Assembly (NCBI GenBank): GCA_046259385.1
Contig: JBJYWI010000157.1
Location: 3,540 to 67,539 of the forward strand
Reading direction: 5' to 3'
Length of the DNA stretch: 64,000 nt
Origin: Anaerolineales bacterium
GTDB taxonomy: Bacteria; Chloroflexota; Anaerolineae; Anaerolineales; UBA4823
Position numbers and translations under genes: made by a program. Positions 10,669 through 54,879 of this stretch are shown here, piece by piece (position 1 is the first letter of the stretch; each line of letters opens with the position of its first letter). The notes below the pieces were generated by a model. The model saw only the letters and a list, made by a program, of their open reading frames with translations, searched no databases and was not told the origin of the DNA.

Positions 10669-11949
10669 ATGAAAAGATCCAGCATAGCAGCAGTGATAAC
10701 GGGTATATTTGCAATCACCCTGGTGCTTGTAGTATGCCTTTTTTATCTGGTCTCTACAACTCCTTCTTTTGGAGCCCTGGGAGCCGAAGTATTGAGAAAT
10801 TCAATCGGTGACAGGCCGGTCGCGATCCTGGAGATGGTATATCTGCAGGTACAGGATAATATCCAGCAAACCAGGTATGGTCTGGGTATTGAACAAGCCC
10901 AGGCGCCATGGGAGGTCGAGCAATACCAGACCCCAACCTCTTTAAAAAATGAGCCAACCGAAACCCTTATTGCAACAAGTCGATCGGAAAAGAAACAGCT
11001 GGCTGAATTTTTTGATGTATCAACACAATCTGCTGGTATGTATCAGGGTATAGGTTCACCGTCGGCCACTGCTGAACCTGCCACTCCTACCATCGAGCCT
11101 ACACCGACACAGTGGCTTCCAGTTCAAATTGAAACTTCCGGTTCGCTGGAAGGAGAAGGTATCTGGTCTCCTTATATACATAATGCCGACGGGGAAACGG
11201 TCGCCTACCGGACTTTTGTGCAGCCGGATCCCGATCGACCTTATTCTATTGTCGCGATTGTTGCCTTTGACCTTTCAAAAATAAGATTGAACTATGTGCT
11301 TGGTTTTGAAGAGCCTTATAATCCAGAGGCTCCCAAGCGGTCGGGGAAAATACCTGAAGAGCACAAGACACCCGGTATCCTGCTGGCTGCATTCAATGGA
11401 GGTTTTAAATCACAGCATGGAGGGTCTGGAGCGATGCAGTCCGGCCTGGTTGTACTTCCGGCCCGGGACGGGCTGGGTACGGTGGCGATGTATCAGGATG
11501 GATCTCTGGAGTTGGGAGAGTGGGGCACAGAGATTGTAGATACTGGTAATATGGCTGCCTGGAGGCAGAATGGCCCACTGGTAGTCCAGGATGGCGAGAT
11601 AAATCCTAGGATATACAACAATGACCCCAAGGATTGGGGCTATACAGTAGATGATGTCTCACCAACGCTGCGCTCTGCCCTGGGGATTTCTGAGGACCAG
11701 AGCACCCTGTATTATCTTGCTGGTCCGAAAATGACTATGGAGGCTCTCGCCAAGAGTATGCTTGAAGTAGGGGTGTGGGATGGCATCCAGTTGGACATAA
11801 ACAATTACTGGGTTCATTTTATAGCATACCCACCGGACCTGGGCGATCTCCAGCCGGAACCCTTGCTACCCGAATTAATGATTGAGAATCTCGACCGTTA
11901 CTTATACGCCTACGGTCGAGACTATTTTTATGTCACTCCGCGTTATTAA
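10669..11949 (+). CDS. Membrane-anchored phosphodiester glycosidase family protein (DUF2233/NAGPA-like)
   Basis: It has an N-terminal TM helix and a Thr/Pro-rich linker. The C-terminal domain contains AAFNGGFK, GPLVVQDGE and RSALGISED...LYYLAG, which resemble this family. The usual NLDGGGS motif reads QLDINNYW here. Confidence 0.5.
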   Translation: MKRSSIAAVITGIFAITLVLVVCLFYLVSTTPSFGALGAEVLRNSIGDRPVAILEMVYLQVQDNIQQTRYGLGIEQAQAPWEVEQYQTPTSLKNEPTETLIATSRSEKKQLAEFFDVSTQSAGMYQGIGSPSATAEPATPTIEPTPTQWLPVQIETSGSLEGEGIWSPYIHNADGETVAYRTFVQPDPDRPYSIVAIVAFDLSKIRLNYVLGFEEPYNPEAPKRSGKIPEEHKTPGILLAAFNGGFKSQHGGSGAMQSGLVVLPARDGLGTVAMYQDGSLELGEWGTEIVDTGNMAAWRQNGPLVVQDGEINPRIYNNDPKDWGYTVDDVSPTLRSALGISEDQSTLYYLAGPKMTMEALAKSMLEVGVWDGIQLDINNYWVHFIAYPPDLGDLQPEPLLPELMIENLDRYLYAYGRDYFYVTPRY

Positions 11950-11969
11950 GGATATGAATATGTGCAGAT

Positions 11970-13508
11970 CTATTCCAGGCTTCCGACTGCTTTCTCCACC
12001 TCTTCCAGTATTAGACCAGATTTAACAAGTTCTTTCATTTTGTTGTGGTCCGGATAAAGGGGGCGGTCTTCATCCAGATGTTCCACATGATCGCGTATCA
12101 CACGGTGGGCAGTTTCAACACCAAGCCCCGGTTTTAGGGGGATGTCTGATTTCATTCGAAAATCAATTGCCTGGGCAGCAGCCATAAACTCAATTCCCAG
12201 TATGCCGTATGCGTTGTCCAGAATCTGCTCGTTTTTGATTGCGGTGTTCATGCCCATCGAAACGAAATCCTCCTGGTCTGCTGCAGCAGGGATAGAGCCG
12301 ATTGAAGCTGGCATTGAAAGGATACGCTGCTCAACGATTAATGTGTCTGCCGTATACTGGCTCAGCATCATACCGGAGAACATACCTGCTCCCTTTGTTA
12401 AGAATGCTGGTAGTCCAACGCTTAATGCTGGATTTGTGAGCCGATTCAACCGGCGTTCGGATAAAACGCTGACCATTGTGATTGCTGCTCCTGCCATGTC
12501 CATCGGAAGTGAAACCGGTGACCCCTGGAAGTTAGCCCCGGTCAGTGTCAGATTATATTCTGGAAGGAACAGCGGGTTATCGCCAACGCCATTAAGCTCG
12601 ATTTCAACCTGACTTCTCGCAAAAGCCAGTGCGTCATGGGCTGCGCCGATCACCTGTGGTGAAGAGCGCATTGAATACGCATCCTGCACCTTCGTTTTGA
12701 TTTTTCCTTTGATTAGATCGCTGCCTTGAATGCATTTATTGATAGCCTTTGCGCTTCTCACCGCCCCATTGAAACCTCGTTTTTCATGCAGCCTTACATC
12801 GTATGGCTTTAAGTTCGCAAGCAGCGCTTCAAGCGTCATCGAACAGGCTATTTCAGCCTGTTTTAACCAGCGGTTCATGTCGTAAAGCTGGAGAGCGCTC
12901 ATTGAAGTTAATAGATTTGCCCCGTTTATTACCGATAATCCGTCTCGGGCTTCTAAGCCTGGGATCTCGATTCCAGCTCTTCGAAAAGCTTCTGAGCCCA
13001 GGAGACGTTCTCCATTGTATAATGCTTCCCCTTCTCCCAGCATCAGGAGAGCGATCTGGGACATGGGCGCAAGATCCCCACACGCACCAACCGAACCTTT
13101 CTGGCATACTATTGGAGTTACACCCTTGTTTAACATTTCAATTAAAGTCAGGGTAATATTGGGCCGGCACCCGGAGTTGCCGTGAGCGTGGACATTAATC
13201 CTACCTGCAATTGCTCCCCTGACATATTCAACAGGAGCAGGTTCACCAATTCCAGCTGCGTGGTTATATACTAGAAACTTTTGAAATTCTTTGATCTGGT
13301 CATCAGATAAAACGACTTCGGAGAACTCTCCAATTCCGGTATTCACCCCGTACATAATTTCATGTGCTTTAATCTTTTTCTCGAGCATTTCCCGGCATGT
13401 CTTGATCCGGTCGAGCGCTGCAGGGTGAAGTTCTACCTGCTCACCTGATCTGGCTATCCTTGTGAAATTTTCAAGTGTCAGCCCCGAGCCATCAAGCATG
13501 ATGGTCAT
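11970..13508 (-). CDS. Histidine ammonia-lyase family protein (MIO-type aromatic amino acid lyase) with Ala-Cys-Gly at the MIO triad
   Basis: Family similarity runs the full length (YGVNTGIGEF, NHAAGIGEP, GSVGACGDLAPMSQ, QDAYSMRSSPQV). The triad codons gcg-tgt-ggg were read directly on the minus strand at 13077-13085. Confidence 0.85.
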   Translation of the reverse strand: MTIMLDGSGLTLENFTRIARSGEQVELHPAALDRIKTCREMLEKKIKAHEIMYGVNTGIGEFSEVVLSDDQIKEFQKFLVYNHAAGIGEPAPVEYVRGAIAGRINVHAHGNSGCRPNITLTLIEMLNKGVTPIVCQKGSVGACGDLAPMSQIALLMLGEGEALYNGERLLGSEAFRRAGIEIPGLEARDGLSVINGANLLTSMSALQLYDMNRWLKQAEIACSMTLEALLANLKPYDVRLHEKRGFNGAVRSAKAINKCIQGSDLIKGKIKTKVQDAYSMRSSPQVIGAAHDALAFARSQVEIELNGVGDNPLFLPEYNLTLTGANFQGSPVSLPMDMAGAAITMVSVLSERRLNRLTNPALSVGLPAFLTKGAGMFSGMMLSQYTADTLIVEQRILSMPASIGSIPAAADQEDFVSMGMNTAIKNEQILDNAYGILGIEFMAAAQAIDFRMKSDIPLKPGLGVETAHRVIRDHVEHLDEDRPLYPDHNKMKELVKSGLILEEVEKAVGSLE

Positions 13509-24045: not shown

Positions 24046-24074
24046 TTGACACTTATATTTTGCCCATATATAAT
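24046..24074 (+). promoter_or_regulatory. Consensus sigma70-type promoter upstream of the kor operon
   Basis: TTGACA (24046-24051), an exactly 17-nt spacer, then TATAAT (24069-24074). Confidence 0.6.
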
Positions 24075-24154
24075 AAAACTACTCGTGAAATATTAAAAAA
24101 AACTGAGCATAAAAAACGACAAATGAGCTTATTCGCTCGTTGGATAGCGACCTC

Positions 24155-24210
24155 AACCGCCCGCAAACACAAAGTTATCGCTGGTAATTTTTGTAAGGGC
24201 GGTTTTTGTT
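24155..24210 (+). promoter_or_regulatory. Terminator-like hairpin with U-tract inside the kor leader (attenuator, riboswitch expression platform or sRNA end)
   Basis: Stem aaccgccc (24155-24162) pairs with gggcggtt (24197-24204). An inner acaaa/tttgt pairing extends it. The hairpin runs into TTTTTG and lies about 125 nt after the predicted start site and 26 nt before the korD ATG. Confidence 0.4.
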
Positions 24211-24235
24211 TATTGGATATTGTCAGGGCGTTGTG

Positions 24236-24514
24236 ATGAGAGTTTTCGCTCGCAAACCGCTTGATTCTGATTCAGTCAGCCTGCCGCGCGGTCAGGTTTA
24301 TCTCATCCCTGTTCGTTGTAAGGGTTGTGGTTTGTGCATCGAGTTTTGTCCTCAGGGAATTTTGCAGGAATCTATAAACACCAACCAGAAAGGATATCAC
24401 TACCCGGAGGTGATAATCGGGGGAGAACAGGAATGTGTTAATTGTGAATTCTGTACTTTGATTTGTCCCGAGTTCGCAATATTTACCCTTCCTGTAAGCG
24501 CAGGTGCGGGATGA
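24236..24514 (+). CDS. korD: 2-oxoacid:ferredoxin oxidoreductase delta subunit (2x[4Fe-4S] ferredoxin)
   Basis: It has two CxxCxxCxxxCP motifs (CKGCGLCIEFCP and CVNCEFCTLICP). Its stop overlaps the korA start in an ATGA. The TTG at 24206 is an alternative start. Confidence 0.8.
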   Translation: MRVFARKPLDSDSVSLPRGQVYLIPVRCKGCGLCIEFCPQGILQESINTNQKGYHYPEVIIGGEQECVNCEFCTLICPEFAIFTLPVSAGAG

Positions 24515-25662
24515 GCCCCGCTAGAGTCCTGTCGGGGAATTATTTTATGAATGGCGACCACGCTTGTGCGGAAGGCGCAATTGCAGCAGGATGTCGCTTT
24601 TTCGGAGGCTACCCCATAACGCCTTCAACAGAGATCGCGGAGAGATTAGCCCGGCGGATGCCGGAAGTAAACGGCGTATTTCTACAAATGGAGGACGAAT
24701 TAGGAAGTATGGCTGCGATTCTCGGCGCTTCTGCAGCCGGTACCCGCTCAATGACGGCGACTTCTGGCCCTGGTTTGAGTCTGATGCTCGAAAATCTAGG
24801 TTTGGGCGTGATGCTCGAATTGCCCTGCGTGCTGGTTGATGTCCAGCGGGGGTCACCATCAACCGGTCTTCCAACAATGCCAGCTCAATCTGATGTGATG
24901 CAGGTAAGGTGGGGGTCTCATGGCGATTATCAGGTCCCAGCCTATGCGCCATGGTCCCCCCAGGAGATGTTCGAGTTGACAATTCTTGCTTTTAATGTGG
25001 CTGACCGTTTCCGGGTACCGGTATGCATGTTGGCAGATGAAGTAGTCGGTCACATGGTGGAAAGAGTTGTGATTCCACCCCAATGTGATCTTGAAATCTG
25101 GCCCAGAAAAAAACCACAGGTGTCACCTGATGGTTCATTTAATCCATTTGAGGTTGAGGATGACGATCTCGTGCCGCCTATTGCCCATGCAGGGGATGGT
25201 TACCGGATACACTATACAGGTTTGACTCATGATGAGCATGGGTATCCTGATATGTCAGCCGATACGCATCATGAACTTGTAACCCGTCTTGTAAAAAAGG
25301 TAAAAGTCAATGCCCCAAAAATAATCCGGACAGAGAATTACTTTCTTGATGATGCGCGGGTTATCGTAATCGCATACGGCTGCACCGCCCGTTCTGCTCG
25401 CAGCGCCGTCAGGCAAGCCAGGGATTTGGGGATCAAAGCTGGTCTGTTCAGGTTAATTTCTTTATGGCCATTTCCTGAAGAGCAAATACTATCTATTAAT
25501 AGTCAGGTTGAATCATTTATTGTTGCAGAGATGAATCTCGGCCAGATTAGCCTTGAAGTCGAACGCATTACAAGAGCTCCGGTTGGGGGAGTTCACCATG
25601 CAGGTGGCGCGATGATTACACCGGAAAAGATTCTTGCAGCCATTATGGAGAAATCGAAATGA
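24511..25662 (+). CDS. korA: 2-oxoglutarate/2-oxoacid:ferredoxin oxidoreductase alpha subunit
   Basis: The N-terminus is NGDHACAEGAIAAGCRFFGGYPITPSTEI, followed by ATSGPGLSLM. It overlaps both neighbouring genes in ATGA junctions. Confidence 0.88.
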   Translation: MSPARVLSGNYFMNGDHACAEGAIAAGCRFFGGYPITPSTEIAERLARRMPEVNGVFLQMEDELGSMAAILGASAAGTRSMTATSGPGLSLMLENLGLGVMLELPCVLVDVQRGSPSTGLPTMPAQSDVMQVRWGSHGDYQVPAYAPWSPQEMFELTILAFNVADRFRVPVCMLADEVVGHMVERVVIPPQCDLEIWPRKKPQVSPDGSFNPFEVEDDDLVPPIAHAGDGYRIHYTGLTHDEHGYPDMSADTHHELVTRLVKKVKVNAPKIIRTENYFLDDARVIVIAYGCTARSARSAVRQARDLGIKAGLFRLISLWPFPEEQILSINSQVESFIVAEMNLGQISLEVERITRAPVGGVHHAGGAMITPEKILAAIMEKSK

Positions 25663-26489
25663 AGCCTGCAGTCACGGTCGATGCCCATCCGCTGGATAAG
25701 ATTATCCGGGCAGATCGAATGCCGCATATCTGGTGCCCAGGATGCGGTATTGGGATTGTGATGCGCATTTATGGTCAGGCGATCCTCGAATCAGGTGTAA
25801 AGCTGAACAATCATGTTGTTGTCTCGGGAATTGGCTGCAGCGGGAGGGTTGCAGGTTATATGAATATCGATTCATATCACACCACCCATGGGCGAGCTAT
25901 CCCGTTTGCCACCGGGCTGAAGCTTGCAAACCCCGGACTCCTGGTGACGGTTTTCAGCGGGGATGGTGATCTGGTTGCGATTGGAGGGAATCATCTTATC
26001 CACGCTGCCCGCAGAAATATAAGCATAAATGTGATTTGTGTAAATAATTTTAATTATGGTATGACCGGCGGGCAGTCAGGACCGACTACACCCCAGGGGG
26101 CGCGCGCTACTACAGCACCTTATGGGAATCCGGAATTGCCATTCAACCTACCTTTCCTTTTAGTCGCCTCCGGAGCGAATTTCGTTTCCCGCTGGTCTAA
26201 TCTGCACGTACGCCAGATTAAGCAGGATGTATTGTATGCCTTCTCTAAAAAAGGGTTCACTTTCATTGAGGTTCTATCTCCCTGTCCGATTGGATTCGGC
26301 CGGTCCAACAGCATCGACGATGGTTTGGAAGAGATGGAGCTCTACAAAGAAAGATGCATATTATTCCGTCAGGGTGAAGTGAGCACCGATGAGCTTGATA
26401 TAGATTTGCGAGAAGATAGGCCAATTTATGTTGGGCGTTTTATAGATAGAGACCGTGATGAATATCAACCCGTCAGAAGCAGGAACTGA
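25659..26489 (+). CDS. korB: 2-oxoacid:ferredoxin oxidoreductase beta subunit (TPP-binding)
   Basis: It contains WCPGCGIG and the GDGD...NNxxYGMTGGQ thiamine-pyrophosphate motif. Confidence 0.88.
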   Translation: MKPAVTVDAHPLDKIIRADRMPHIWCPGCGIGIVMRIYGQAILESGVKLNNHVVVSGIGCSGRVAGYMNIDSYHTTHGRAIPFATGLKLANPGLLVTVFSGDGDLVAIGGNHLIHAARRNISINVICVNNFNYGMTGGQSGPTTPQGARATTAPYGNPELPFNLPFLLVASGANFVSRWSNLHVRQIKQDVLYAFSKKGFTFIEVLSPCPIGFGRSNSIDDGLEEMELYKERCILFRQGEVSTDELDIDLREDRPIYVGRFIDRDRDEYQPVRSRN

Positions 26490-26525
26490 AACCAGCTGGT
26501 AATAACTTGCGAGTGAAAATATCGA

Positions 26526-27092
26526 ATGCGCACTGAAATTTGCATAACCGGGTTTGGGGGTCAGGGGATTGTCCTAGCTGGATATATCCTAGGAAAAGCG
26601 GCTGCATTATATAACGGAAAAGAGGCGGTTATGACCCAGGCACATGGGCCGGAGGCACGCGGCGGAGCCTCCAGTGCGAATGTGGTCATCTCAGACCTGA
26701 CTGTGGATTACCCATTTGTGCAGAAACCTGATATCCTGATTGCTTTATCACAGGAAGCTTACTTAAAGTTCCGCCCAAAAGCAAAAGAAGGCGCTCAGGT
26801 TTTTATTGATCAGGACCTTATTGACCCATTTGAATATGATTCGCCCTTGGTGATTCCAGCTACTCGCATTGCAGAAGACTTGGGAAAACGGATTGTAGCG
26901 AACGTTGTAATGCTTGGTTTCTTCACTGCTGCTGCTGGGGTGGTGAGCAAGGAAGCGATGCTGAAATCCATTGAATCGACAGTTAAACCTAAAACCTTAT
27001 CGTTGAATCTGGAAGCGTTCGAACGCGGTTTTATGCACACCGCCCAGGAAACCAACACTAGCGCTGAAATAGCAGTCCGGGAGTTTGATTGA
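26526..27092 (+). CDS. korC: 2-oxoacid:ferredoxin oxidoreductase gamma subunit
   Basis: The N-terminus GFGGQGIVLAGYILGKAA is typical of the gamma subunit family. Confidence 0.85.
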   Translation: MRTEICITGFGGQGIVLAGYILGKAAALYNGKEAVMTQAHGPEARGGASSANVVISDLTVDYPFVQKPDILIALSQEAYLKFRPKAKEGAQVFIDQDLIDPFEYDSPLVIPATRIAEDLGKRIVANVVMLGFFTAAAGVVSKEAMLKSIESTVKPKTLSLNLEAFERGFMHTAQETNTSAEIAVREFD

Positions 27093-27121
27093 ACTTGTTA
27101 ACGTTTAAATGAGATTCGTAT

Positions 27122-30100
27122 ATGTCTGAGACTGTTCTGGTTATCGGAGGCGGAATAGCCGGGATCCAGGCTTCACTGGATCTGGCAGATGCAGGCGCAA
27201 GGGTGACGCTGGTGGAGAGGGAGGCGACAATCGGCGGGATGATGGCGGTATTGGATAAAAATTTTCCCACTTTAGACTGTTCGATTTGCATTGAAGCCCC
27301 AAAGATGTCTCAGGTTGAACTGCATCCGAATATTGAAATTCTCTCTCTCTCCGAGGTTACCCGGGTGGAAGGGGAGGCGGGAGATTTTAGAGTGGAGATT
27401 GAACAATCTGCGCGCTACGTCACAGATGAATGTACTCGCTGCGGAGAGTGCACTGCCGTCTGTCCAGTCCCCTTGCCCAATGAATATGACTCGGGGATGG
27501 CAGTCCGAAAAGCAATATATACTCCAATACCTCAATCAACACCCGGAACCTATCTTGTCGACATTGAAAGCTGCCTCAATCAGCCACCCAACTATTTTCC
27601 CTGCAATCATTGCGTCCAGGCTTGCCCTCCGGGTGCGATTGATTTCTTGATGCCGGCGAAAAGAGTATTAACGCGCAAGGTGGGCTCGATTATTATCGCG
27701 GCTGGATACAGCATGTTCAATCCGGTTGTTATGAAGGAATATGGGTACGGAGATCATCCGGATATCCTGACTGCCATGGAGTTCGAAAGACTGGTAAATT
27801 CGGCTGGTCCGACCGGGGGCGAGATCCTCTGCCCTTCGGATGGCAGCCACCCTGAAAAAATACTCTTTGTTCTTTGCGTTGGGTCGCGCGACCACAGGTA
27901 TTTCAGGTATTGTTCCAGATTCTGCTGTATGTATTCGATCAAGCATGCCTATCAAGCGATTGATCACGGCATAAAAGATGTGACAGTTCTATACATGGAT
28001 GTGCGCGCATTTGGCAAAGGTTTTGATGGTTTCTGGGAACGGACCCGGGTCGAGGGTGCCAGGTATGTTCACGGGCGACCATCCAGAATCTTCCCAGGGG
28101 AAAATGGTTCGGTTTGTGTTATCTATGAAGACACAGCTGTATCCAAACGCTGCGAAGGTGAATTCGATATGGTTGTCCTGGCAAATGCTGTAACTCCGCC
28201 GTTTGGTCTTACTGGGCTCGCGAGCGTTTTAGGTATTGAAATTGATTCAGATGGTTTCATTAGAGCTGATGAAATGCGGGGAGGGCTTGTGGTCACAAGC
28301 CGGTCGGGGATCTATGCGGCTGGGTGCGTTTCAGGTCCCAAAGATATCCCTGACAGTGTATCTGAGGGAAGCGCAGCATCCGCCCTAGCGTTAATTCACT
28401 TAAAGACTAGGAACTGGCCGGAACCGCTCCAAGTGGAACCACTCACTGATATTGAGATACCCCGCATTGGTGTTTTTGTCTGCCACTGTGGAAGCAACAT
28501 AGCCGGGGTTGTGGAAATAGACAAGGTAGTTGAATTTGCGAGAAGTCTGCCGGGAGTGGAATTCGCCGGCGACCAGATGTTTTCCTGTGCGGGAAATACT
28601 CAGGGTGAAATCGAGGCAACTATAGCTGATTACAATCTCAACAGAGTGGTGATTGCTGCCTGTTCGCCCAAAACTCACGAATCGATTTTTAGGGGGGTTT
28701 TGCAAAGGGCTGGCTTAAATCCGTTTTTGCTTGAAATGACCAATATTCGAAACATGGATTCCTGGGTACATAAAGCCAATCCTGTTGCGGCGACATCGAA
28801 GGCGAAAGATATGGTTTCGATGGCGGTTGAAAAAGCGCGCAGATTGGTGCCGCTTGAAATAACGCAGCTGCCCCTGAACCAGAGTGTTCTGGTGATTGGA
28901 GGTGGGATCGCTGGAATGTCTGCTGCCGCTGCACTCAACCAGATGGGACTGGATACCCATCTCGTGGAACGAGGCTGGCGCCTGGGAGGGATGCTTAATA
29001 ATTTGGAGCGTTTATACCCATCCGAGATCAATCCAGAAAAATTGATCAAGGTTAAATCGCAGGAACTGCTGGACAGCGGTGTTCACATTTATATGGGTAC
29101 CGAAGTGGAAGAGATTGGTGGGATAGTGGGAAACTATACTGCCAATCTAAGTAATGGTAAGGAGGTTAACACCGGGGCAGTAGTGATCGCAACCGGTGCT
29201 TCAACATACCGTCCTAAAGAATTCGGCTATCGAAACAGAAATCCACACCCAACAACCGACAGCACCGCCTTTATAAAAACTGATGTGGATTTAACTAGAG
29301 GAGATAGGAGCGCACCTCTTTGTCCGGAGGTGATCACAAATCTGGATCTTGAACGCATGCTTGGGAAAAGCCCGCCTGAAGCTGAGAGGATCACATTTAT
29401 TGCATGTGTGGGATCGCGTCAGGGTGAAATGGGCTGTTCGCGCTATTGCTGCACTTCGATGATTGGGCAGGCGCTGCGGTTGAGACTTATGGACAAAAAA
29501 GTGCGCATACTTTATAAGGAGATTCGCACTTACAGCCGGCAGGCTGAGGAACTTTACGAAAAGGCGATGCGGGCTGGCGTACAGTTCTTTCAATACAATC
29601 CCGATAAACCTCCTCAAGAAGCGCTAAAAATAGTCGATGCGGGTATTAAGTTTTATGATTATTTACTCGGTTCCGACATCATTATTCCTACCGATCTCCT
29701 GGTGCTGGTGGTTGGTTTGATTCCTTCGGTTGACCGATTGTCCGAACAATTGAAGCTTGCCCGCAGCGAGGATGGGTTTTATATGGAATTGCATCCCAAG
29801 TTAGGCCCGGTGGAAACCGCTGTCCAGGGTGTTTTTCTGGCAGGTTCAGCCCAGGGAGCAAAAGATGTGCGCGAATCCATAGCAGGCGCGCTGGCATCAG
29901 CCGGCAAAGCTGGCGCCCTCCTGTCACGTGGTGTGATTGAAAAGGAACCGTTGACCGCCCGATTAATTCCAGATCTGTGTGCAGGCTGCATGCGTTGTGT
30001 GAAAGTATGTCCATTCGGAGCGATTGAGCAGATCGGAAAACCTGGAAAAGATGGCAGTGTCAAAATCCTGGAAGCAGCCTGTATGGGGTGCGGAACCTGT

Positions 30101-30613
30101 GCTGCAGAATGTAATTTTGATGCGATCGAAATGCCTTATTTCACAAAAGATCAAATTATCGCTCAGATCGATGCCGCATTGCAGGAGCGCCCCCAAGAAA
30201 AGTGCTTGGTATTTACCTGCAACTGGTGCTCATATGCGGGCGCTGATTTAGCAGGAATTGAAAAACGCCAGTATCCGGAATCGGCACGTCTGATTCGCAC
30301 AATGTGCTCTGCCCGAATTGAAGAAGATTTTGTTTCTCATGCGTTTGATAAAGGTGCTGGGGCTGTATTGATTACAGGCTGCCGCCTGACTGATACCGGA
30401 TCCGATTGTCATTACAATTACGCTAATCGTTTGACCTTGAAGCGGTTCCAGCACTGGCAGCGAAAATTTTCCCGGAAAGGAATAGAACCTGAGAGGTTGC
30501 AACTGAGCTGGATATCGGCTGCGGAAGGGAAGGAATTCGCAGAAAAAATGTACGAAATGGATTCCGTTGTATTGCAGTTTTCTAAATCGAAGCCAGTCAT
30601 TGAAGGTGTTTAA
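27122..30613 (+). CDS. HdrA-like flavoprotein, tandem HdrA modules fused to a C-terminal MvhD domain (1163 aa)
   Basis: Module 1 has VLVIGGGIAGIQASLDLA, an inserted ferredoxin (CTRCGECTAVCP and CNHCVQACPPG) and CVGSRD...YCSRFCCMYS. An HdrA N-domain-like segment (IGVFVCHCGSNIAG...VVIAACSPKTHE) follows. Module 2 has VLVIGGGIAGMSAAAAL, CVGSRQ...CSRYCCTS and two ferredoxin motifs. The MvhD-like end reads LVFTCNWCSYAGADLAG...LITGC...DCHY. Confidence 0.8.
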   Translation: MSETVLVIGGGIAGIQASLDLADAGARVTLVEREATIGGMMAVLDKNFPTLDCSICIEAPKMSQVELHPNIEILSLSEVTRVEGEAGDFRVEIEQSARYVTDECTRCGECTAVCPVPLPNEYDSGMAVRKAIYTPIPQSTPGTYLVDIESCLNQPPNYFPCNHCVQACPPGAIDFLMPAKRVLTRKVGSIIIAAGYSMFNPVVMKEYGYGDHPDILTAMEFERLVNSAGPTGGEILCPSDGSHPEKILFVLCVGSRDHRYFRYCSRFCCMYSIKHAYQAIDHGIKDVTVLYMDVRAFGKGFDGFWERTRVEGARYVHGRPSRIFPGENGSVCVIYEDTAVSKRCEGEFDMVVLANAVTPPFGLTGLASVLGIEIDSDGFIRADEMRGGLVVTSRSGIYAAGCVSGPKDIPDSVSEGSAASALALIHLKTRNWPEPLQVEPLTDIEIPRIGVFVCHCGSNIAGVVEIDKVVEFARSLPGVEFAGDQMFSCAGNTQGEIEATIADYNLNRVVIAACSPKTHESIFRGVLQRAGLNPFLLEMTNIRNMDSWVHKANPVAATSKAKDMVSMAVEKARRLVPLEITQLPLNQSVLVIGGGIAGMSAAAALNQMGLDTHLVERGWRLGGMLNNLERLYPSEINPEKLIKVKSQELLDSGVHIYMGTEVEEIGGIVGNYTANLSNGKEVNTGAVVIATGASTYRPKEFGYRNRNPHPTTDSTAFIKTDVDLTRGDRSAPLCPEVITNLDLERMLGKSPPEAERITFIACVGSRQGEMGCSRYCCTSMIGQALRLRLMDKKVRILYKEIRTYSRQAEELYEKAMRAGVQFFQYNPDKPPQEALKIVDAGIKFYDYLLGSDIIIPTDLLVLVVGLIPSVDRLSEQLKLARSEDGFYMELHPKLGPVETAVQGVFLAGSAQGAKDVRESIAGALASAGKAGALLSRGVIEKEPLTARLIPDLCAGCMRCVKVCPFGAIEQIGKPGKDGSVKILEAACMGCGTCAAECNFDAIEMPYFTKDQIIAQIDAALQERPQEKCLVFTCNWCSYAGADLAGIEKRQYPESARLIRTMCSARIEEDFVSHAFDKGAGAVLITGCRLTDTGSDCHYNYANRLTLKRFQHWQRKFSRKGIEPERLQLSWISAAEGKEFAEKMYEMDSVVLQFSKSKPVIEGV

Positions 30614-30643
30614 TTTTAGGGATTGAAAAAAAGGCTACCACGT

Positions 30644-31888
30644 ATGCAAAAAAGCTTGGAGATGATGGATCAAAGCGGCAGCAATTCCTACCTTATTGAT
30701 GAAGCGCTGTGGGAGAAGATTAATGAACGCGCATCCGGGTCAGCAAATCTTTGCTTTCAATGCGGGGAATGCACTGCTGTATGTCCCTGGGGGATTGTAA
30801 AAGAAGGGTCGCTAAAGGTGCGTTCAATATTAAGGGGGGCTCAATTAGGGGTTGAAGATTGGGATAAAGAAATCTGGTTGTGCACGAATTGTATCCAATG
30901 TCAATCTTATTGTCCCAGGGGCGTCCAGATCGGGGATATATTCCAGGCTTTACGTTCATTGAGTTGGGAAAACCGAGAGGTAGAACCCGGGCTACCCAGC
31001 ATGCTCTGGTCAATTTACTGGAATGACAATCCCTGGTCGCAACCCCCGTCGGAGAGATTTAATTGGGCCAGAGGGGCAAATATCCCTGAGTTCGACTGCC
31101 AGGAGCACGAGTTCCTGCTCTATATCGGCTGCACCTCGGCATTTGACAATCGCCTGCAGAAAGTTGCCCAGGCTCTGGCGAGGGTGCTTACTGCTTTTGG
31201 GGTCAGTTTCGGCTGCCTCGGAGTTAACGAACCCTGCTGCGGAGAGTCAATAAAGAGCGTTGGGCACAATCCGTATTTCCGCGAAACAGCAGAATCGACT
31301 GCACGGATTTTTACTAGCGCGGGTGTCCGGAAATTGATGACGCTATCTCCTCATTGCTATGATGTGTTCAAAAACCATTACAGGACTGTTCTTCAAGAGG
31401 AATCATTCGAGGTGTTTCACTATACACAAGTCTTGGCGGAATTATTGGAAAATGGAAAGGTAAGTATTCCCGCAGGGTTTATTGACCGGGCTCTCGAAAA
31501 TAATTACAGTTGGATTGATCCAGATGGAGTCACCATAACTTTCCAGGACCCGTGTTATTTGGGCAGGAGAAATAATGAATTCCAAGCGCCGCGCACTCTG
31601 ATATTAGGCATACCGGGTATAAATCTTATAGAGATGGAAAACCACATGCAGGATGGGTTGTGCTGCGGCGGGGGCGGCGGGCGGATGTGGTTGGAGACGC
31701 CCAGCGGTGAGCGATTTTCTGACATAAGGATTAAGCAGGCGTTAGAAACCGGCGCCTCGATACTGGCTACCGCTTGTCCCTTTTGTCTGGTTTGTCTGGA
31801 GGACAGCTTGAATGCCCTGGGGAAGAAAAACTTGTTTGTGCTGGATATTGCTGAAATTGTAGATATGGCGATCGGTCAATCAGGATAA
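30644..31888 (+). CDS. HdrD-like iron-sulfur oxidoreductase (2x[4Fe-4S] plus two CCG domains)
   Basis: The ferredoxin motifs are CFQCGECTAVCP and CTNCIQCQSYCP. The CCG signatures are EPCCGES and GLCCGGGGG. No TM segment is present. The ATG at 30644 is preferred over the TTG at 30623. Confidence 0.8.
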   Translation: MQKSLEMMDQSGSNSYLIDEALWEKINERASGSANLCFQCGECTAVCPWGIVKEGSLKVRSILRGAQLGVEDWDKEIWLCTNCIQCQSYCPRGVQIGDIFQALRSLSWENREVEPGLPSMLWSIYWNDNPWSQPPSERFNWARGANIPEFDCQEHEFLLYIGCTSAFDNRLQKVAQALARVLTAFGVSFGCLGVNEPCCGESIKSVGHNPYFRETAESTARIFTSAGVRKLMTLSPHCYDVFKNHYRTVLQEESFEVFHYTQVLAELLENGKVSIPAGFIDRALENNYSWIDPDGVTITFQDPCYLGRRNNEFQAPRTLILGIPGINLIEMENHMQDGLCCGGGGGRMWLETPSGERFSDIRIKQALETGASILATACPFCLVCLEDSLNALGKKNLFVLDIAEIVDMAIGQSG

Positions 31889-31916
31889 ATCAAAAGGACT
31901 ATTAAACCAAAGGAAG

Positions 31917-32936
31917 ATGACTCTATCCCTCTATGATGCTCGCAGCGCTGCTGATTCTATCTGGGTATTTTTAGAGCAGGATCGGAATAGCCTAACAGAG
32001 ATTTCGCTTGAACTGTTGGCAAAAGGGCGGCAGCTTGCAGACCAGGTCGGTTGGAAATTGGGGGGATTAATTCTGGGCATACGGAACAGTGAATTATGCA
32101 GCGAGGCGGTTGCGCACGGCGCAGACGAAGTCTGGTCTGCTGAACACGAATTGCTGGAAAATTTTACAATCGACGCATTTTCCACCATCACGTTTGAGAT
32201 GATTATGGAGGGAAAACCGGGTGTTCTTCTTTTTGGCGCCACACCTGATGGGAGGGACCTGGCTGGTCGTTTAGCTGTACGGCTTCGAACAGGTCTGAAC
32301 GCAGATTGCACTGGTCTCAGGTTGCGCCCTGGAACTGGAGAACTGATATGTGACGTATCTGGTTTTGGTGGAGGTGTACTGGCTTTAATTGAGATGGGAG
32401 ACCACAGACCCCAGATAGCGACAATCAGACCAGGTGTTTTTTCGAAGACCCAACCTGATTGGAAGCGGTTAGGCGAGTTGATTAAGTTCCCTGTATTGTT
32501 AAAAGCAGAAGATATCCAGACCCGGATAGTCAAAAAAGTATCTGGTGAAGGAGTGGACCTCACACAGGTTTCCCTTATCATTGCTGGGGGCCGCGGCATG
32601 GGGGGCGATTTTGGGGCTCTCCAAAAGCTGGCTGATATTCTTGGAGGAGAGGTTGGCGCGACTAGGCCGCCTGTGGATGATGGTTATATCGAACGTGAAA
32701 GGCAAATCGGTCAGACAGGTGTTGTATGCAGCCCCAAAATAGCACTTTGTTGTGGGATCAGCGGCGCGTTTCATTTTATTGTTGGGGTCGAAAAAGCCGA
32801 TATTGTTATAGCAATTAATTCGGATCCTTCTGCGCCTATTTTTGAGCATGCTGATTACTGTGTTGTTGGAGACGTGCACACCATCCTGCCTCTGATAAAG
32901 GAGGCTCTCCAAACGCGCCTGGCGGAGGAAATATAA
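31917..32936 (+). CDS. etfA: Electron transfer flavoprotein alpha subunit (EtfA/FixB-like)
   Basis: The C-terminal FAD domain contains IIAGGRGMG, GATRPPVDDGY, QIGQTG and AINSDPSAPIF. Confidence 0.85.
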   Translation: MTLSLYDARSAADSIWVFLEQDRNSLTEISLELLAKGRQLADQVGWKLGGLILGIRNSELCSEAVAHGADEVWSAEHELLENFTIDAFSTITFEMIMEGKPGVLLFGATPDGRDLAGRLAVRLRTGLNADCTGLRLRPGTGELICDVSGFGGGVLALIEMGDHRPQIATIRPGVFSKTQPDWKRLGELIKFPVLLKAEDIQTRIVKKVSGEGVDLTQVSLIIAGGRGMGGDFGALQKLADILGGEVGATRPPVDDGYIERERQIGQTGVVCSPKIALCCGISGAFHFIVGVEKADIVIAINSDPSAPIFEHADYCVVGDVHTILPLIKEALQTRLAEEI

Positions 32937-32937
32937 A

Positions 32938-33726
32938 TTGAAAAGCGTGGTGTGTGTTAAAGTCATACCAAAGTCAGAAGAGGTCCGGGTCGATCCCGAA
33001 ACGATGTTGCTCATCCGGGATGGAGTGCGCTCGGAAATCAACCCGCCGGATATGAATGCCCTTGAGATGGCGCTCAACATAAAAGACCGCTACGGCGGCC
33101 AGGTAAATATATTGTCTATGGGCCCGCCTTCATTTTTGCCGTTCTTGCAGGCTGGAGTTGCAATGGGTGCTGATCACATCTATCTGTTGAGCGACCTAGT
33201 GCTGGCAGGCGCGGATACGCTTGCGACGACATATACCCTGTCAAAGGGAATCAGGAGATTGGGGGATATTGATCTGATCTTCTGCGGTGAAGAATCGTCG
33301 GATGGAGCCACCGGGCAGGTCCCTTCTGGGCTGGCTGAATGGTTGCAGATCAGGGGATTGTTTTTGACTACGGAGATGGAGCTAGACCGAAATCACTTAA
33401 CCGCGCGAGGTAGGCGTGAGGTCGCGAGCGGTTATCAAATTTTGGAAGTCCCTTTGCCATGTGTTGTTTCTGTAAAAACCGCCTGCAATGAACCTCGCTT
33501 TATGGATTATGCCCGCAAGGAATGGGCGTTTGAGAGAGAGCGTGTCACAATCTGGAATGCGCATGATATAGATGCGGACCCGGAATTTATCGGCGTGGAG
33601 GGTTCGCCCACAGTTGTCTCCGGGTTGGCCCAGGCGCCGACCAGGGAGCGGAAACGGATGTTCCTTGAAGGTTCACCTTTAGAAATTGCCGGGCAAATTG
33701 CCGAAATCCTGCAGAAGAATTCATAA
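32938..33726 (+). CDS. etfB: Electron transfer flavoprotein beta subunit (EtfB/FixA-like)
   Basis: The N-terminus is MKSVVCVKVIPKSEEVRVD, followed by INPPDMNALEMAL and IFCGEESSDGATGQV. The TTG start lies one nucleotide after the etfA stop. Confidence 0.85.
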   Translation: MKSVVCVKVIPKSEEVRVDPETMLLIRDGVRSEINPPDMNALEMALNIKDRYGGQVNILSMGPPSFLPFLQAGVAMGADHIYLLSDLVLAGADTLATTYTLSKGIRRLGDIDLIFCGEESSDGATGQVPSGLAEWLQIRGLFLTTEMELDRNHLTARGRREVASGYQILEVPLPCVVSVKTACNEPRFMDYARKEWAFERERVTIWNAHDIDADPEFIGVEGSPTVVSGLAQAPTRERKRMFLEGSPLEIAGQIAEILQKNS

Positions 33727-33900
33727 AACTTCTGGTAAATCTTAACCCGGTTGTGAGCGGTTGTCCGTTCTAAGCTGGGGCTGTAGCATCGTCAGAGCTT
33801 CTCGTTCAATTACTTGCGAATCCGCAGAAATATTTATCAAATCTAGGACCGATACTGCTGGTGGTAGGTTCTGGGTTGCACATGGACATTAAAAGTCTGC

Positions 33901-52233: not shown

Positions 52234-54879
52234 TCAACGCGCGTTCAGAATACCAGCGGGATCCCACATATTCTTCAGGCTGCGCATTAATTGAATGCTT
52301 GCTGGTTTATACCCCCAATAGTCTGATTTAATGAACCCCAGCTGACTTGCGGGTATTCTCTTAACATAACCATTATGCATGTTAATAAATTGGATTATTG
52401 AATCTGAAAGAGTCGGCGCCTCCAAATAACACATACCATTAGGTAGGTCGAGGATCAAATCCGCCAACCCCATTTCCTCCATATTTTCATTTATGAATTG
52501 AGTTAAATCCTTTGGTGGAATTCCAATCTGAAAAATTACTCCATCTCCCAAGGGAAGGGGAGGTATATCCCGATCATTTCGGAATAAACTGTTTTTCGCC
52601 TTCTTCGTTTTCGTCTTGATCCAGTTTCCCCAGATTTCTGTCCCGGATGACCATTCAACATGTTCATATTCAGTGATATCGAAGCGGTTGATAATATCAT
52701 TTACCTGCTCGAATTCACTAGTCACATCTTCGGGATAACCTTCGGCGGTATATGTAAGGCGGAAAGTTGGATCCTGGTTTTCAGAAGAAACCATGCGGAT
52801 TATCAGGGATGATGCAACCAGACAAACCCGGTTAAGTAGACCACCGATCTCGAGCGCTAGGTTAAGGGTATCAACTGCCATATTCAGGCTCACCCTGGTG
52901 CGCGGTGTTGATACCAGTTTAAATGTAACTTCAGAGATAAATCCCAGCGCTCCTGCAGAACCTATAAAAAGTTTTGTCATGTCATATCCAGCCACATTTT
53001 TCACAACTGGGCGGCCGGTTCTTATCTTTCTGCCATCTGGAAGGATGACTTCCAACCCAAGCACAAGATCGCGCACTCCTCCGTATCGCGTCCGTAAAGG
53101 AGCGTTGAAATTGGAGGATACAATGCCTCCTATAGTGGAATCCTCCCAGGGAGTAAAGAGAGGGACCCAGACCCCGAATTCCTCAAGTTGTTCTTGAAGC
53201 AGGTTTAGTCTCAATCCTGCGCCAGCAGTTACATATAAGTCATCAATGGAAAGTTTATGAATGCTGGTCAAGTGCTCAGTGGAAATATAATGATCAACCC
53301 CGTCAGGTTGCCTGGATTTCGTGCCTCCACCGAGTATATGAAGTGGAGTTTTTTGATGGTTAGCTTTCTTTATAAACGATCTGGCTTCGGATGTTGAATA
53401 AGGTCTGGAAACTGGTGCCAGACTGCCTTCGAATATTTGCGTTTCCTCCAATTTTTGTAATTCTGTGTCTCCATCTTCTGGGAAGATTTTACCCGGATTC
53501 AGAATTCCTTCCGGGTCAAACAGGCGTTTAAGTTCCTTCATCGCCTTTAATTCATCTTCGCTGTACATAAGCGGCATATATTCCTTTTTTTCAAGACCAA
53601 CACCGTGTTCACCTGTGATGGTGCCTTTGCTTTCAACACATAACTCCATTATCTCCCTGCCGGCCCGGTGGATTCTTTTCATCAGGTCTTGATTGTCCGG
53701 ATCATCTATTAGCAGAAATGGGTGCAGATTACCATCACCTGCATGGAATACATAAGCTACTCTTAATTCGAGTCGTGAACAGATCTGGTTTATGCTTTCC
53801 AGCATTTCAGCCAGATTACTGCGCGGCACGGTGCCGTCTAATGTTAGATATGCCCGGGCCAGGCGCGCCATTGCTCCTGCCGCGTTTTTTCGACCATACC
53901 ATATTTTCTCCCTTTCTGTTTCTGTTTGCGCAATTCTTATCTCCAAGGCAGATGACTCACGGAGGGATTTACTGATCTCCTCAACCTGGGGGGATAAAGC
54001 TTCTTTAAAACCATCTACTTCAATGATTAGTGCCGCTCCAGCATCAACCGGTAGCCCTGCCTGGGCGAATTCTTCAATCATTTTCATCATTTGCTGGTCC
54101 ATAAATTCGAGTGTTGCTGGGACAAGCCCGATTGTGATCAACTTAGAAACAGCCTCTCCAGCCAGGGCTACAGTGTCAAAGGATGCCATTAATGTTCTAA
54201 CCCCCGGGGGATTCCGAATCAGGCGCAGGTCAGCTTTTGTAATTATTCCAAGTGTCCCCTCACTTCCGGTGATCAGACCACAAAAGTCGAATCCCGGGTA
54301 ATCGAGCGCTTTCCCGCCGAATTGAATTACTTCACCGCTTGCAGTTACCACCTCGAGACCGGTTACGTAGTTGGTGGTGACCCCATATTTAAAACAGTGT
54401 GGACCGCCTGCATTAACAGATATGTTGCCACCAATGGTAGAAACGCGCCCGCTTGCCGGGTCAGGAGGGTAATACAAACCATCTTGCTTTACGATTTTAT
54501 CCAGATCAAGATTAACCAGACCAGGCTGCACGGTTGCGCTTCTGCCAAGAGGGTCTAATTCAAGAAGCTTATTCATGTGCGAAAAGTGCAGTATCACACC
54601 ACCTTTTATCGCAACCGCACCTCCGGCTAAACCAGTACCGGCTCCGCGTGCTGTAAGCGGTATTCGATATTTAAGCGCCCAGGATGCGATCAGGCTGACT
54701 TCCTCGGTCGATTCTGGCAGTATCACTACTTCAGGCATGCCTCTCTCCAGCGCAGCGTCAATCTCATAAGTAACAAGTTCCCCTGGCTGGGTAAATATTC
54801 GCTCAGGGTTGATTTTCTGTTCTAACTCGAGAATGCTTGAGATAATTTCCTTGGATTTCATCTCTTTACATAATCCCAT
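52234..54879 (-). CDS. Fused GlcD-GlcE-like FAD-binding oxidoreductase (glycolate/D-lactate dehydrogenase type)
   Basis: The N-terminal half has FAD_binding_4 motifs (ARGAGTGLAGGAV, and GTITGEHGVGLEKK of the C-terminal cap). The second half repeats an FAD-binding domain (HILGGGTKS). The start may instead be the ATG at 54861 (MKSKEII). Confidence 0.75.
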   Translation of the reverse strand: MGLCKEMKSKEIISSILELEQKINPERIFTQPGELVTYEIDAALERGMPEVVILPESTEEVSLIASWALKYRIPLTARGAGTGLAGGAVAIKGGVILHFSHMNKLLELDPLGRSATVQPGLVNLDLDKIVKQDGLYYPPDPASGRVSTIGGNISVNAGGPHCFKYGVTTNYVTGLEVVTASGEVIQFGGKALDYPGFDFCGLITGSEGTLGIITKADLRLIRNPPGVRTLMASFDTVALAGEAVSKLITIGLVPATLEFMDQQMMKMIEEFAQAGLPVDAGAALIIEVDGFKEALSPQVEEISKSLRESSALEIRIAQTETEREKIWYGRKNAAGAMARLARAYLTLDGTVPRSNLAEMLESINQICSRLELRVAYVFHAGDGNLHPFLLIDDPDNQDLMKRIHRAGREIMELCVESKGTITGEHGVGLEKKEYMPLMYSEDELKAMKELKRLFDPEGILNPGKIFPEDGDTELQKLEETQIFEGSLAPVSRPYSTSEARSFIKKANHQKTPLHILGGGTKSRQPDGVDHYISTEHLTSIHKLSIDDLYVTAGAGLRLNLLQEQLEEFGVWVPLFTPWEDSTIGGIVSSNFNAPLRTRYGGVRDLVLGLEVILPDGRKIRTGRPVVKNVAGYDMTKLFIGSAGALGFISEVTFKLVSTPRTRVSLNMAVDTLNLALEIGGLLNRVCLVASSLIIRMVSSENQDPTFRLTYTAEGYPEDVTSEFEQVNDIINRFDITEYEHVEWSSGTEIWGNWIKTKTKKAKNSLFRNDRDIPPLPLGDGVIFQIGIPPKDLTQFINENMEEMGLADLILDLPNGMCYLEAPTLSDSIIQFINMHNGYVKRIPASQLGFIKSDYWGYKPASIQLMRSLKNMWDPAGILNAR

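Follow-up and report, generated by a model that had tools for sequence, protein, structure and literature searches.

An eight-gene cluster on the forward (+) strand of a 64,000-nucleotide stretch of DNA from an Anaerolineales bacterium (contig JBJYWI010000157.1; the whole stretch is called the window) encodes a four-subunit 2-oxoacid:ferredoxin oxidoreductase (Kor), a fused HdrA-type flavoprotein carrying an MvhD domain, a soluble HdrD-like iron-sulfur protein and the two subunits of an electron transfer flavoprotein (Etf). The cluster is conserved as one unit in bacteria and archaea, and no described Kor-Hdr-Etf module was found in open-access papers and preprints. The eight genes look like an undescribed energy-coupling enzyme of the anaerobic tricarboxylic acid (TCA) cycle and, by analogy with known complexes, we consider it an even chance that an Hdr-type bifurcating core couples the low-potential succinyl-CoA/2-oxoglutarate reaction of Kor to the high-potential Etf.

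Known Hdr-type bifurcating systems take their electrons from hydrogenase, formate dehydrogenase, F420H2 or NADH modules and use heterodisulfide, methylene-tetrahydrofolate, DsrC or benzoyl-CoA as acceptors. If the proposed coupling is true, a TCA-cycle reaction joins this list.

The eight-gene unit and its Kor component

The interval 24046-33726 of the window was verified to hold eight + strand open reading frames (ORFs) in the order korD-korA-korB-korC-hdrA fusion-hdrD-like-etfA-etfB, with junctions, in gene order, of -4, -4, +36, +29, +9, +28 and +1 nucleotides (nt). ORF calls and translations agreed in every detail with the original prediction, made from the DNA sequence alone, of eight co-directional genes with overlapping or short junctions, and Pfam and NCBIfam backed the family assignment of all eight genes, listed here with their lengths in amino acids (aa).

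24236-24514, + strand: korD, delta subunit, 92 aa; Fer4 dicluster Pfam match and two CxxCxxCxxxCP motifs in the translation, i.e. two [4Fe-4S] motifs
24511-25662, + strand: korA, alpha subunit, 383 aa from ATG 24511; POR_N and PFOR_II, PRK08659
25659-26489, + strand: korB, thiamine pyrophosphate-binding beta subunit, 276 aa; TPP_enzyme_C
26526-27092, + strand: korC, gamma subunit, 188 aa; POR family, 6e-36
27122-30613, + strand: HdrA fusion with MvhD, 1163 aa; HdrA2 model and FlpD/MvhD
30623-31888, + strand: HdrD-like soluble Fe-S protein, 421 aa; Fer4_8 (2x[4Fe-4S] ferredoxin part) and two CCG domains
31917-32936, + strand: etfA, large Etf subunit, atypical, 339 aa; ETF and ETF_alpha
32938-33726, + strand: etfB, small Etf subunit, 262 aa; ETF domain

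korA most plausibly starts at ATG 24511, in an ATGA overlap with the korD stop codon; the longest ORF begins at TTG 24463.

Conservation of the cluster was evaluated by scanning the HdrA fusion against one genome per GTDB species, which returned 142 relatives; 80 loci were kept and their gene content was determined by tblastn with the eight window proteins. All eight genes were colinear in 54 of the 80 loci, and contig ends cut 21 more. A further two loci contained all eight genes, one (L106) with an order difference that was an artefact of start choice and the other (L083, Elusimicrobiota) with the kor genes permuted as C-B-A-D, while three were borderline and lay near contig ends. According to the record titles the loci come from Anaerolineae, Armatimonadota, a 'Zixibacteria' bin, Elusimicrobiota, Thermoplasmata and 'Nitrososphaerales' metagenome-assembled genomes (MAGs), and in the archaeal loci identity to the window proteins goes down to 34-55%. 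The clustering of the eight genes is far beyond chance, and the synteny search thus returned one conserved unit joining Kor, the HdrA/MvhD flavoprotein, the soluble HdrD-like CCG protein and EtfAB, as had been proposed. The order etfA before etfB, which the original prediction had pointed out as a reversal of the common one, was constant in every locus having both genes.

The 619 flanking ORFs were clustered and no ninth conserved gene emerged, no family being present in more than 14 of the 80 loci; the orthologues, therefore, do not always sit beside a defined dehydrogenase that happens to be missing here. The absence of a hydrogenase, formate dehydrogenase, membrane anchor or acyl-CoA dehydrogenase, reported earlier, holds for the unit and for the genes conserved beside it. 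No locus with the Hdr/HdrD/Etf part and without kor was seen where the contig permitted the check. The korC/hdrA fusion junction showed a median gap of -4 nt in related loci, with an overlap in 61 of 73, a figure that may be overstated as the most upstream start codon was chosen. Pairwise-distance matrices of the seven larger proteins in 43 loci were correlated at rho 0.81-0.92, with HdrD, EtfA and EtfB as the tightest trio, and show co-inheritance, not binding.

The nearest relative is 83% identical on the HdrA fusion and has both the cluster and its flanks in common with the window. In that relative (L001/L033:14797-15819) etfA was called at just 242 aa, about 290 nt ahead of etfB, possibly because the gene is frameshifted or a pseudogene, or because the assembly is in error. 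A complete Anaerolineales MAG chromosome carries the eight genes closely packed and mostly overlapping, with wholly different flanks. The full eight-gene module was also reached from distant EtfA relatives on haloarchaeal-looking contigs, where EtfA is only 39% identical. At L121:958-10569 and in L122 the complete module is flanked by DmsR_N/BAT/HTH_10 regulators, with a KorD of 122 aa and an HdrA fusion of 1226 aa, and the EtfA-relative search gave partial versions on two more contig sets, L124 being one carrier. The module is widespread in digester, peat, groundwater and hypersaline metagenomes and was apparently exchanged between bacteria and archaea by horizontal transfer.

As to the enzyme at the head of the cluster, Pfam matches for the alpha, beta, gamma and delta subunits identified a four-subunit 2-oxoacid:ferredoxin oxidoreductase, in accordance with the earlier assignment. 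KorA scored 546.5 bits with the NCBIfam model PRK08659 (cutoff 411), and the top NCBIfam match of KorD was OGOR_delta, under its cutoff. The solved structures nearest to KorA were 1yd7, a Pyrococcus 2-keto acid enzyme (4e-105), the 2-oxoglutarate synthase 8ys5 (5e-79) and the 2-oxoglutarate:ferredoxin oxidoreductase (OGOR) 6n2n (8e-58), and the one nearest to KorB was 8ys5_C, a 2-oxoglutarate ferredoxin oxidoreductase beta subunit (5e-65). Judged by these sequence matches, Kor is probably a 2-oxoglutarate:ferredoxin oxidoreductase.

The genomic context of related loci is consistent with this assignment. In 10-14 Anaerolineales relatives a TCA operon lies divergent from korD, 230-450 bp off, and encodes ATP-citrate-lyase-like subunits, a citryl-CoA-lyase-like protein, a 180-aa protein without Pfam family, a LeuCD-type aconitase and an isocitrate/isopropylmalate dehydrogenase (L046:72-6994, likewise L054, L063 and L085; also L035:18400-23396), while pyruvate kinase and a CoA-transferase follow downstream in the same loci. 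In those genomes the divergent operon assigns Kor to the TCA cycle and gives a hint that it runs reductively. The source genome of the window has citrate synthase, SdhCDAB, three other 2-oxoacid:ferredoxin oxidoreductase (OFOR) loci and several other HdrA systems.

Two candidate transcription signals border the cluster.

24046-24074, + strand: sigma-70-type promoter-like site TTGACA-17-TATAAT, 12/12 consensus positions, a consensus match only
33814-33827, + strand: weak terminator-like hairpin 3' of etfB, from a pattern scan in which such sites are no commoner than in shuffled sequence

The promoter-like site was the sole perfect match in the scanned 13 kb and is separated from korD by a leader of about 160 nt (24075-24235). 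The pattern scan returned no convincing terminator inside the eight-gene block. Two tRNA-Ser genes were the only Rfam families reaching the gathering score in the window.

Cofactor sites of the HdrA fusion, the HdrD-like protein and Etf

The top model for the fusion was the NCBIfam HdrA2 model (1119.6 bits, cutoff 1100), and the MvhD chains of 5odc, 8rvu and 7bkb matched its C-terminus at 1e-23 to 1e-28. Alignment with 5odc_A paired residues 3-372 of the fusion with HdrA 144-510, i.e. the thioredoxin reductase (TrxR)-like flavin adenine dinucleotide (FAD) domain and its inserted ferredoxin; residues 445-601 with the HdrA N-terminal domain (2-158); and residues 858-1020 with the final stretch of another TrxR domain together with the C-terminal ferredoxin. 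Residues 1027-1146 matched MvhD. The fusion, therefore, consists of two HdrA modules that divide the accessory domains between them. The HdrA and MvhD parts of the predicted 'HdrA/MvhD fusion' were thus both recovered, but as a tandem of two complementary HdrA modules and not one, arranged as follows.

27122-28405, + strand: module 1 (aa 1-428), TrxR-like FAD domain with inserted 2x[4Fe-4S] ferredoxin, candidate bifurcating FAD; GxGxxG, 5odc_A alignment
28454-28876, + strand: module 2, N-terminal-type HdrA domain (aa 445-585), HdrA residues 2-158; Cys454/456/489/514 invariant
28877-29941, + strand: module 2, TrxR-like FAD domain (aa 586-940) without inserted ferredoxin, candidate non-bifurcating FAD; GxGxxG, Pyr_redox_2
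29951-30181, + strand: C-terminal 2x[4Fe-4S] ferredoxin domain (aa 944-1020), HdrA 568-650; all eight Cys invariant
30200-30571, + strand: MvhD domain (aa 1027-1150), FlpD 9e-38; Cys1033/1036/1062/1087/1096 invariant

Module 1 has the Cys53/Cys56 pair, without counterpart in module 2, and the inserted ferredoxin; the N-terminal cluster domain and C-terminal ferredoxin belong to module 2. Each HdrA accessory element occurs once, split over the two modules, a layout other than that of the protomer of homodimeric HdrA. Invariant residues in module 1 are Cys53/Cys56, the eight Cys of the inserted ferredoxin, Cys252/264/268/269 and Lys274, the equivalent of HdrA Lys409 (bifurcating-FAD type), so that module 1 shows both the Lys and the four-Cys site of the HdrA flavin site. 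The TrxR domain of module 2 has invariant Cys762/772/776/777 and an equally invariant Gln783 (non-bifurcating type) where module 1 has Lys. In all, there are two FAD sites, and the Cys of seven [4Fe-4S] clusters and of the MvhD cluster are invariant.

An AlphaFold model of the fusion (predicted local distance difference test score 79, predicted template modelling score 0.82) retrieved, in a fold search of a PDB copy without BamE, only HdrA chains (template modelling score, TM-score, about 0.75, normalised to the target chain) and thioredoxin reductases. In the fused HdrAs of anaerobic methanotrophic (ANME) archaea and Moorella the complementary domains make a built-in heterodimer, with reversed domain order, and the domain layout of the present fusion marks it as a pseudo-heterodimer of the same kind. 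The source genome also holds a cluster of giant HdrA-type fusions at G000:C291:55000-70500 (L115) and C291:84000-89300 (L116), comprising a 1075-aa tandem HdrA without MvhD and 1535- and 1501-aa proteins with a GltD/NfnB-like N-terminus, with a histidine kinase in between; near them are the small and large subunits of a [NiFe] hydrogenase with a 419-aa Fer4 and CCG protein.

The HdrD-like protein was described earlier as soluble and, in accordance with this, it has neither a hydrophobic segment nor a membrane domain; none of the eight proteins shows a conspicuous hydrophobic stretch of the transmembrane type. Among solved structures the HdrD-like protein comes closest to the mycobacterial (M. 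smegmatis) EtfD 9ojn_A, an ETF:menaquinone oxidoreductase, with an E-value of 7.5e-52 from the single sequence and 3.9e-83 from the profile, HdrB reaching only 4e-13. A profile built from 41 HdrD-like orthologues scored 283 bits with EtfD, 96 bits with HdrC and 52 bits with HdrB. The alignment to EtfD begins at EtfD residue 400 and the membrane heme b domain is missing.

At CCG site 2 all five Cys are invariant, as is His244 (70 of 70 orthologues), whereas at CCG site 1 Ser242 replaces the first Cys of the CxxC in 65 of 70 orthologues and four Cys remain in about 60 of 70. The two complete CX31-39CCGX35-36CXXC motifs of HdrB/HdrD are thus not present, site 1 being short and His244 occupying the position of EtfD His583; closeness to EtfD, a five-Cys plus His site and a reduced second site are instead the features of EtfD/BamD-type proteins. 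In EtfD, His583 completes the coordination of the non-cubane cluster D2 and makes it non-catalytic, and in EtfD homologues that take electrons from ETF site D1 is often degenerate (PMC13083937). BamD holds a cluster with five Cys and one His and a four-Cys [3Fe-4S] cluster, and ETF binds in situ beside its non-cubane clusters and is reduced through them (bioRxiv 10.64898/2026.04.10.717634). Because of the invariant cluster 2 His, the Cys-deficient site 1 and the likeness to EtfD and BamD, the partner of the HdrD-like protein is likely the co-encoded Etf. The previous suggestion of an unknown disulfide as HdrD substrate appears unlikely, since the nearest relative is EtfD, the His is of the non-catalytic type and the BamD counterpart exchanges electrons with ETF. 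A complex prediction with EtfA, EtfB and residues 30-421 of the HdrD-like protein gave a score of 0.81, the control with EtfA replaced scoring 0.74, a result that speaks neither for nor against contact.

Related proteins occur elsewhere in the window and in the source genome. On the - strand of the window, at 52234-57139, an 881-aa FAD-linked oxidase (two FAD_binding_4 stretches and FAD-oxidase_C) is followed by a 436-aa Fer4 and 2xCCG protein and an EamA transporter; the first two form a GlcD/GlcF-type 2-hydroxyacid oxidoreductase, and the 436-aa protein is the second HdrD-like gene of the window. Contig C114 of the source genome (L114:2133-4130 and 10924-12855) encodes 665- and 643-aa proteins with Fer4 and two CCG domains behind an N-terminal extension of about 250 aa; only in the 643-aa protein does this extension match the NarI-like Nitrate_red_gam family. 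Both are candidate EtfD/EMO-type ETF:menaquinone oxidoreductases that could re-oxidise Etf.

EtfA matched bifurcating Etfs at 1e-75 to 1e-54 and canonical Etfs at 1e-28, and the solved proteins nearest to EtfB were CarD, LctB and the EtfB of bifurcating complexes. EtfB retains the second-FAD-site residues described in PMC8958531, i.e. Thr94/Thr97 and a D-G-A-T-G-Q 'zipper' (DGxTxQ), which by sequence affiliates the Etf with the bifurcating group 2, and EtfA retains Arg250 and Thr267 of the electron-transferring (ET) site. The Arg of the bifurcating flavin is replaced by Val147 in EtfA of all 70 orthologues; among the 120 nearest database EtfA homologues this position holds Val in 119 and Leu in one. 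This Arg (A. fermentans R146, R. palustris R165) is in contact with the bifurcating flavin, phosphates included, is reported to be kept in 99% of bifurcating and 447/449 canonical Etfs, and its replacement in RpaETF abolished FAD and AMP binding (PMC8958531). The use of NAD(H) by Etf, as originally predicted, is made uncertain by the missing near-universal Arg: the proximity to bifurcating Etfs and the EtfB second-FAD residues stand in its favour, but the role in NADH use is not secure.

The second Etf of the source genome, encoded in a standard acad-etfB-etfA cluster, retains the Arg. Arg or Lys is missing at this position in 32 of the 150 best 50%-cluster representatives and, among those on informative contigs, P0244, P0257 and P0281 belong to the same eight-gene-type module. 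P0289 (L127:8023-12419), an EtfA with Val, lies in a Firmicutes-type acad-etfB-etfA-acad cluster; this acyl-CoA-dehydrogenase-linked case rules out that the Val substitution is exclusive to the Kor-Hdr-Etf module, so the substitution marks a wider, uncharacterised Etf branch. With it, the module defines a branch without a residue thought to be nearly universal.

Proposed electron flow and competing explanations

The gene content, the motifs and the conservation as a unit are observed; a physical complex, its wiring, the position of Kor, the substrate and the direction of the reaction are what we infer. The eight genes would encode one soluble redox system with a core most like BamD-BamE-BamF plus ETF, in which the FAD of module 1 (Lys274) would be, by homology with HdrABC and BamDEF, the bifurcating flavin with three connections. 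Along the high-potential branch electrons would pass from the [4Fe-4S] cluster of the TrxR domain to the HdrD-like protein, with its two cubanes and His-capped non-cubane cluster, and then to the ET-FAD of EtfAB; as this branch would end at Etf, the 'substrate' of the HdrD-like protein would be Etf and not a disulfide. The low-potential branch would run over the cluster of the N-terminal domain and the inserted ferredoxin to KorD and then to Kor, either directly or through ferredoxin, and the C-terminal ferredoxin with the fused MvhD would form the port of a mid-potential partner encoded outside the cluster. By analogy with the Bam system, Etf is placed on the high-potential arm with fair confidence; Kor is put more tentatively, on thermodynamic grounds, on the low-potential arm, as a donor at about -0.5 V would not need bifurcation.

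The succinyl-CoA + CO2/2-oxoglutarate couple lies at about -0.5 V, and the system would link it with Etf, whose couple is taken to be near 0 V; the potential of BamOP is +16 mV (bioRxiv 10.64898/2026.04.10.717634). With these two values, any donor of about -0.25 V or lower would suffice. In the forward direction, reductive carboxylation would be boosted from an NADH- or ferredoxin-level donor, and in reverse, 2-oxoglutarate oxidation would lift Etf electrons to the NADH/ferredoxin level. Etf electrons may further pass to the two EtfD/EMO-type membrane proteins and to SdhCDAB of the genome. If true, the forward reaction could explain how a reductive carboxylation at about -0.5 V proceeds in organisms with a weakly reduced ferredoxin pool, and the reverse reaction could account for the disposal of Etf-level electrons without a respiratory acceptor. 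That ETF accepts the high-potential electrons from an HdrD-like subunit was found recently, and the module lends itself to testing this; being compact (eight genes, all soluble) and widespread, it is amenable to heterologous expression.

Candidates for the mid-potential partner were searched in the source genome and in five distant module genomes. The source genome has four acyl-CoA dehydrogenases, several [NiFe] hydrogenases and CofE, and no [FeFe] hydrogenase was found in it; its canonical acad-etfB-etfA cluster is separate from the module. F420H2 found no support as a general third partner, CofE being present in the source genome but in only one of the five distant genomes, whose completeness was not established. 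A hydrogenase was likewise rejected as universal partner ([NiFe] large subunits in 3/5), and an acyl-CoA dehydrogenase as obligatory Etf partner (4/5). A common ferredoxin is the simplest candidate, and this is a guess.

Several points weigh against the proposed coupling. The position of Kor on the low-potential branch is argued from thermodynamic logic and analogy, the Kor-Hdr-Etf complex is something we infer, and the scheme has a gap where the mid-potential partner, which the module does not encode, would belong. The 2-oxoglutarate-specific NCBIfam models were under their cutoffs for Kor, and ATP-citrate lyase was not found in the source genome, which is 90% complete. CCG site 2 of the HdrD-like protein retains all five Cys of the catalytic HdrB site, and the collinearity with BamE is argued from residue numbers quoted in the preprint. 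Moreover, the Etf falls by sequence in the NADH-oxidising bifurcating branch, with Thr94/Thr97 and the zipper retained, and may thus act as an electron input and not as a sink.

The last point is part of the original scheme, according to which Etf is a bifurcating, NADH-oxidising input, Kor supplies or uses ferredoxin, and the HdrD-like protein reduces a disulfide or another small substrate at its CCG clusters. EtfA and EtfB are indeed far nearer to CarDE, LctBC, Bcd-linked EtfAB and EtfABCX than to canonical Etfs, Thr94/Thr97 and DGxTxQ are retained, and CCG site 2 bears the full five-Cys motif. We nevertheless regard this scheme as unlikely: His244 is invariant and of the type that is non-catalytic in EtfD, CCG site 1 is one Cys short in 65/70 orthologues, the family profile favours EtfD over HdrB (283 against 52 bits), no thiol-carrier gene is conserved in the flanks, and the bifurcating-flavin Arg, whose replacement in RpaETF abolished FAD/AMP binding (PMC8958531), is Val in every orthologue.

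A similarly small probability is assigned to Kor acting as the electron input at the MvhD port, in the place of hydrogenase or BamGHI, with the electrons of 2-oxoglutarate going partly to a ferredoxin or flavodoxin of very low potential and partly to Etf, and from the latter to NAD+ or quinone. MvhD is normally an adaptor to an Fe-S donor module, KorD is the operon's only other Fe-S electron-exit protein, and korD directly adjoins the hdrA fusion in the Elusimicrobiota arrangement. However, from standard potentials, 2-oxoglutarate at about -0.5 V would already reduce ferredoxin and NAD+ exergonically, with no gain unless an acceptor far below -0.5 V were used, and no enzyme for such an acceptor is conserved with the module. 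The operon might also bring together separate enzymes, i.e. an ordinary ferredoxin-dependent Kor and an independent Hdr/HdrD/Etf complex that have a ferredoxin pool and regulation in common, as Kor is complete with its four standard subunits and does not require a further partner, the genome holds three other OFOR loci and several other HdrA systems, and the complex prediction gave no positive sign of association. This too seems improbable, given the fixed order of eight genes over bacterial and archaeal lineages at 35-55% identity, the usual overlap of korC and the hdrA fusion, and the lack of any Hdr/HdrD/Etf locus without kor on contigs that permitted the check.

The proposed coupling of Kor to Etf could also take a stricter form, which we put forward only tentatively: a 2-oxoglutarate synthase supercomplex, itself a new class of flavin-based bifurcating enzyme, in which the HdrA-type flavin would split NADH- or ferredoxin-level electrons, delivering the low-potential ones directly to Kor to carboxylate succinyl-CoA reductively and the high-potential ones to the dedicated Etf and then to quinone or fumarate. 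Should this form be true, it would explain how non-phototrophic anaerobes power the hardest step of the reductive TCA cycle.

Comparison with known systems

The methanogen MvhAGD-HdrABC and Fmd/Fwd supercomplexes (5odc, 7bkb, 8rvu) have the same HdrA fold and cofactor motifs (E-value 5.5e-183, TM-score 0.75) and the MvhD domain, and offer the idea of low-potential electrons fed directly to a CO2-fixing enzyme. However, HdrA is a homodimer there and a tandem pseudo-heterodimer here, and the module is without an HdrB-type open site, coenzyme M/coenzyme B chemistry, hydrogenase and formate dehydrogenase; as there is no open HdrB site, it is not a methanogen-type Hdr. The F420H2-dependent HdrA2B2C2 of Methanosarcina acetivorans (PMC5296606) likewise contains an HdrA-MvhD fusion, but with a single HdrA module and a separate catalytic HdrB2C2, and F420 dependence is not supported for the window module.

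The HdrD-like protein resembles EtfD (9ojn; PMC13083937) and syntroph EMO in having two cubanes and two CCG sites, the His of EtfD completing cluster D2 in a protein that accepts ETF electrons. It differs in having no membrane/heme b domain and no disordered tail, in CC instead of CT at site 1 and in a Ser for the first Cys of CPHC; because of the missing membrane domain it is not an EtfD. The nearest Etf sequences are those of the bifurcating EtfAB (5ol2 Bcd-EtfAB, 6fah CarCDE, 7qh2 LctBCD, 7koe EtfABCX and 4kpu), with the ET-site Arg/Thr, EtfB Thr94/Thr97 and the zipper in common. In contrast, Arg146 (A. fermentans numbering) is Val here, the following GGN is GGG, and in place of the QH after GISGA the window reads HF and its relatives either HF or QF. 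Moreover, the partner is an Fe-S CCG protein instead of a flavoprotein dehydrogenase and the two genes stand in the opposite order; lacking the Arg, this is not a standard bifurcating Etf. A different arrangement, with Hdr and ETF genes in the neighbourhood of group 3c hydrogenases, is described for some Anaerolineae and Dehalococcoidia in one preprint.

The closest parallel is the class II benzoyl-CoA reductase of Geobacter metallireducens, Bam[(BC)2DEFGHI]2 with its ETF (BamOP), solved by cryo-electron microscopy, in which BamE is a fused HdrA dimer with a bifurcating FAD in module 1 (Lys280), a structural, non-bifurcating FAD in module 2 (Gln768), a Cys59/Cys62 pair and seven clusters (bioRxiv 10.64898/2026.04.10.717634). 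Lys274, Gln783 and Cys53/56 of the fusion parallel these BamE residues, and the two systems have in common the fused HdrA dimer, seven [4Fe-4S] clusters, an MvhD-type adaptor, an HdrD-like protein with five-Cys plus His and four-Cys clusters, and an ETF partner. The differences are that MvhD is here fused to HdrA, that Etf is inside the operon, in the order A then B and without the Arg of the second nucleotide site, and that the tungsten BamBC and the BamGHI NADH/ferredoxin input are missing, with the four-subunit Kor in their operon place. Neither BamB (AOR-type) nor BamC or BamGHI families were found among the eight genes or in the conserved flanks and, because these are missing, the module is not a class II benzoyl-CoA reductase. 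It appears to be constructed on the plan of the BamDEF/ETF core, joined to another catalytic module.

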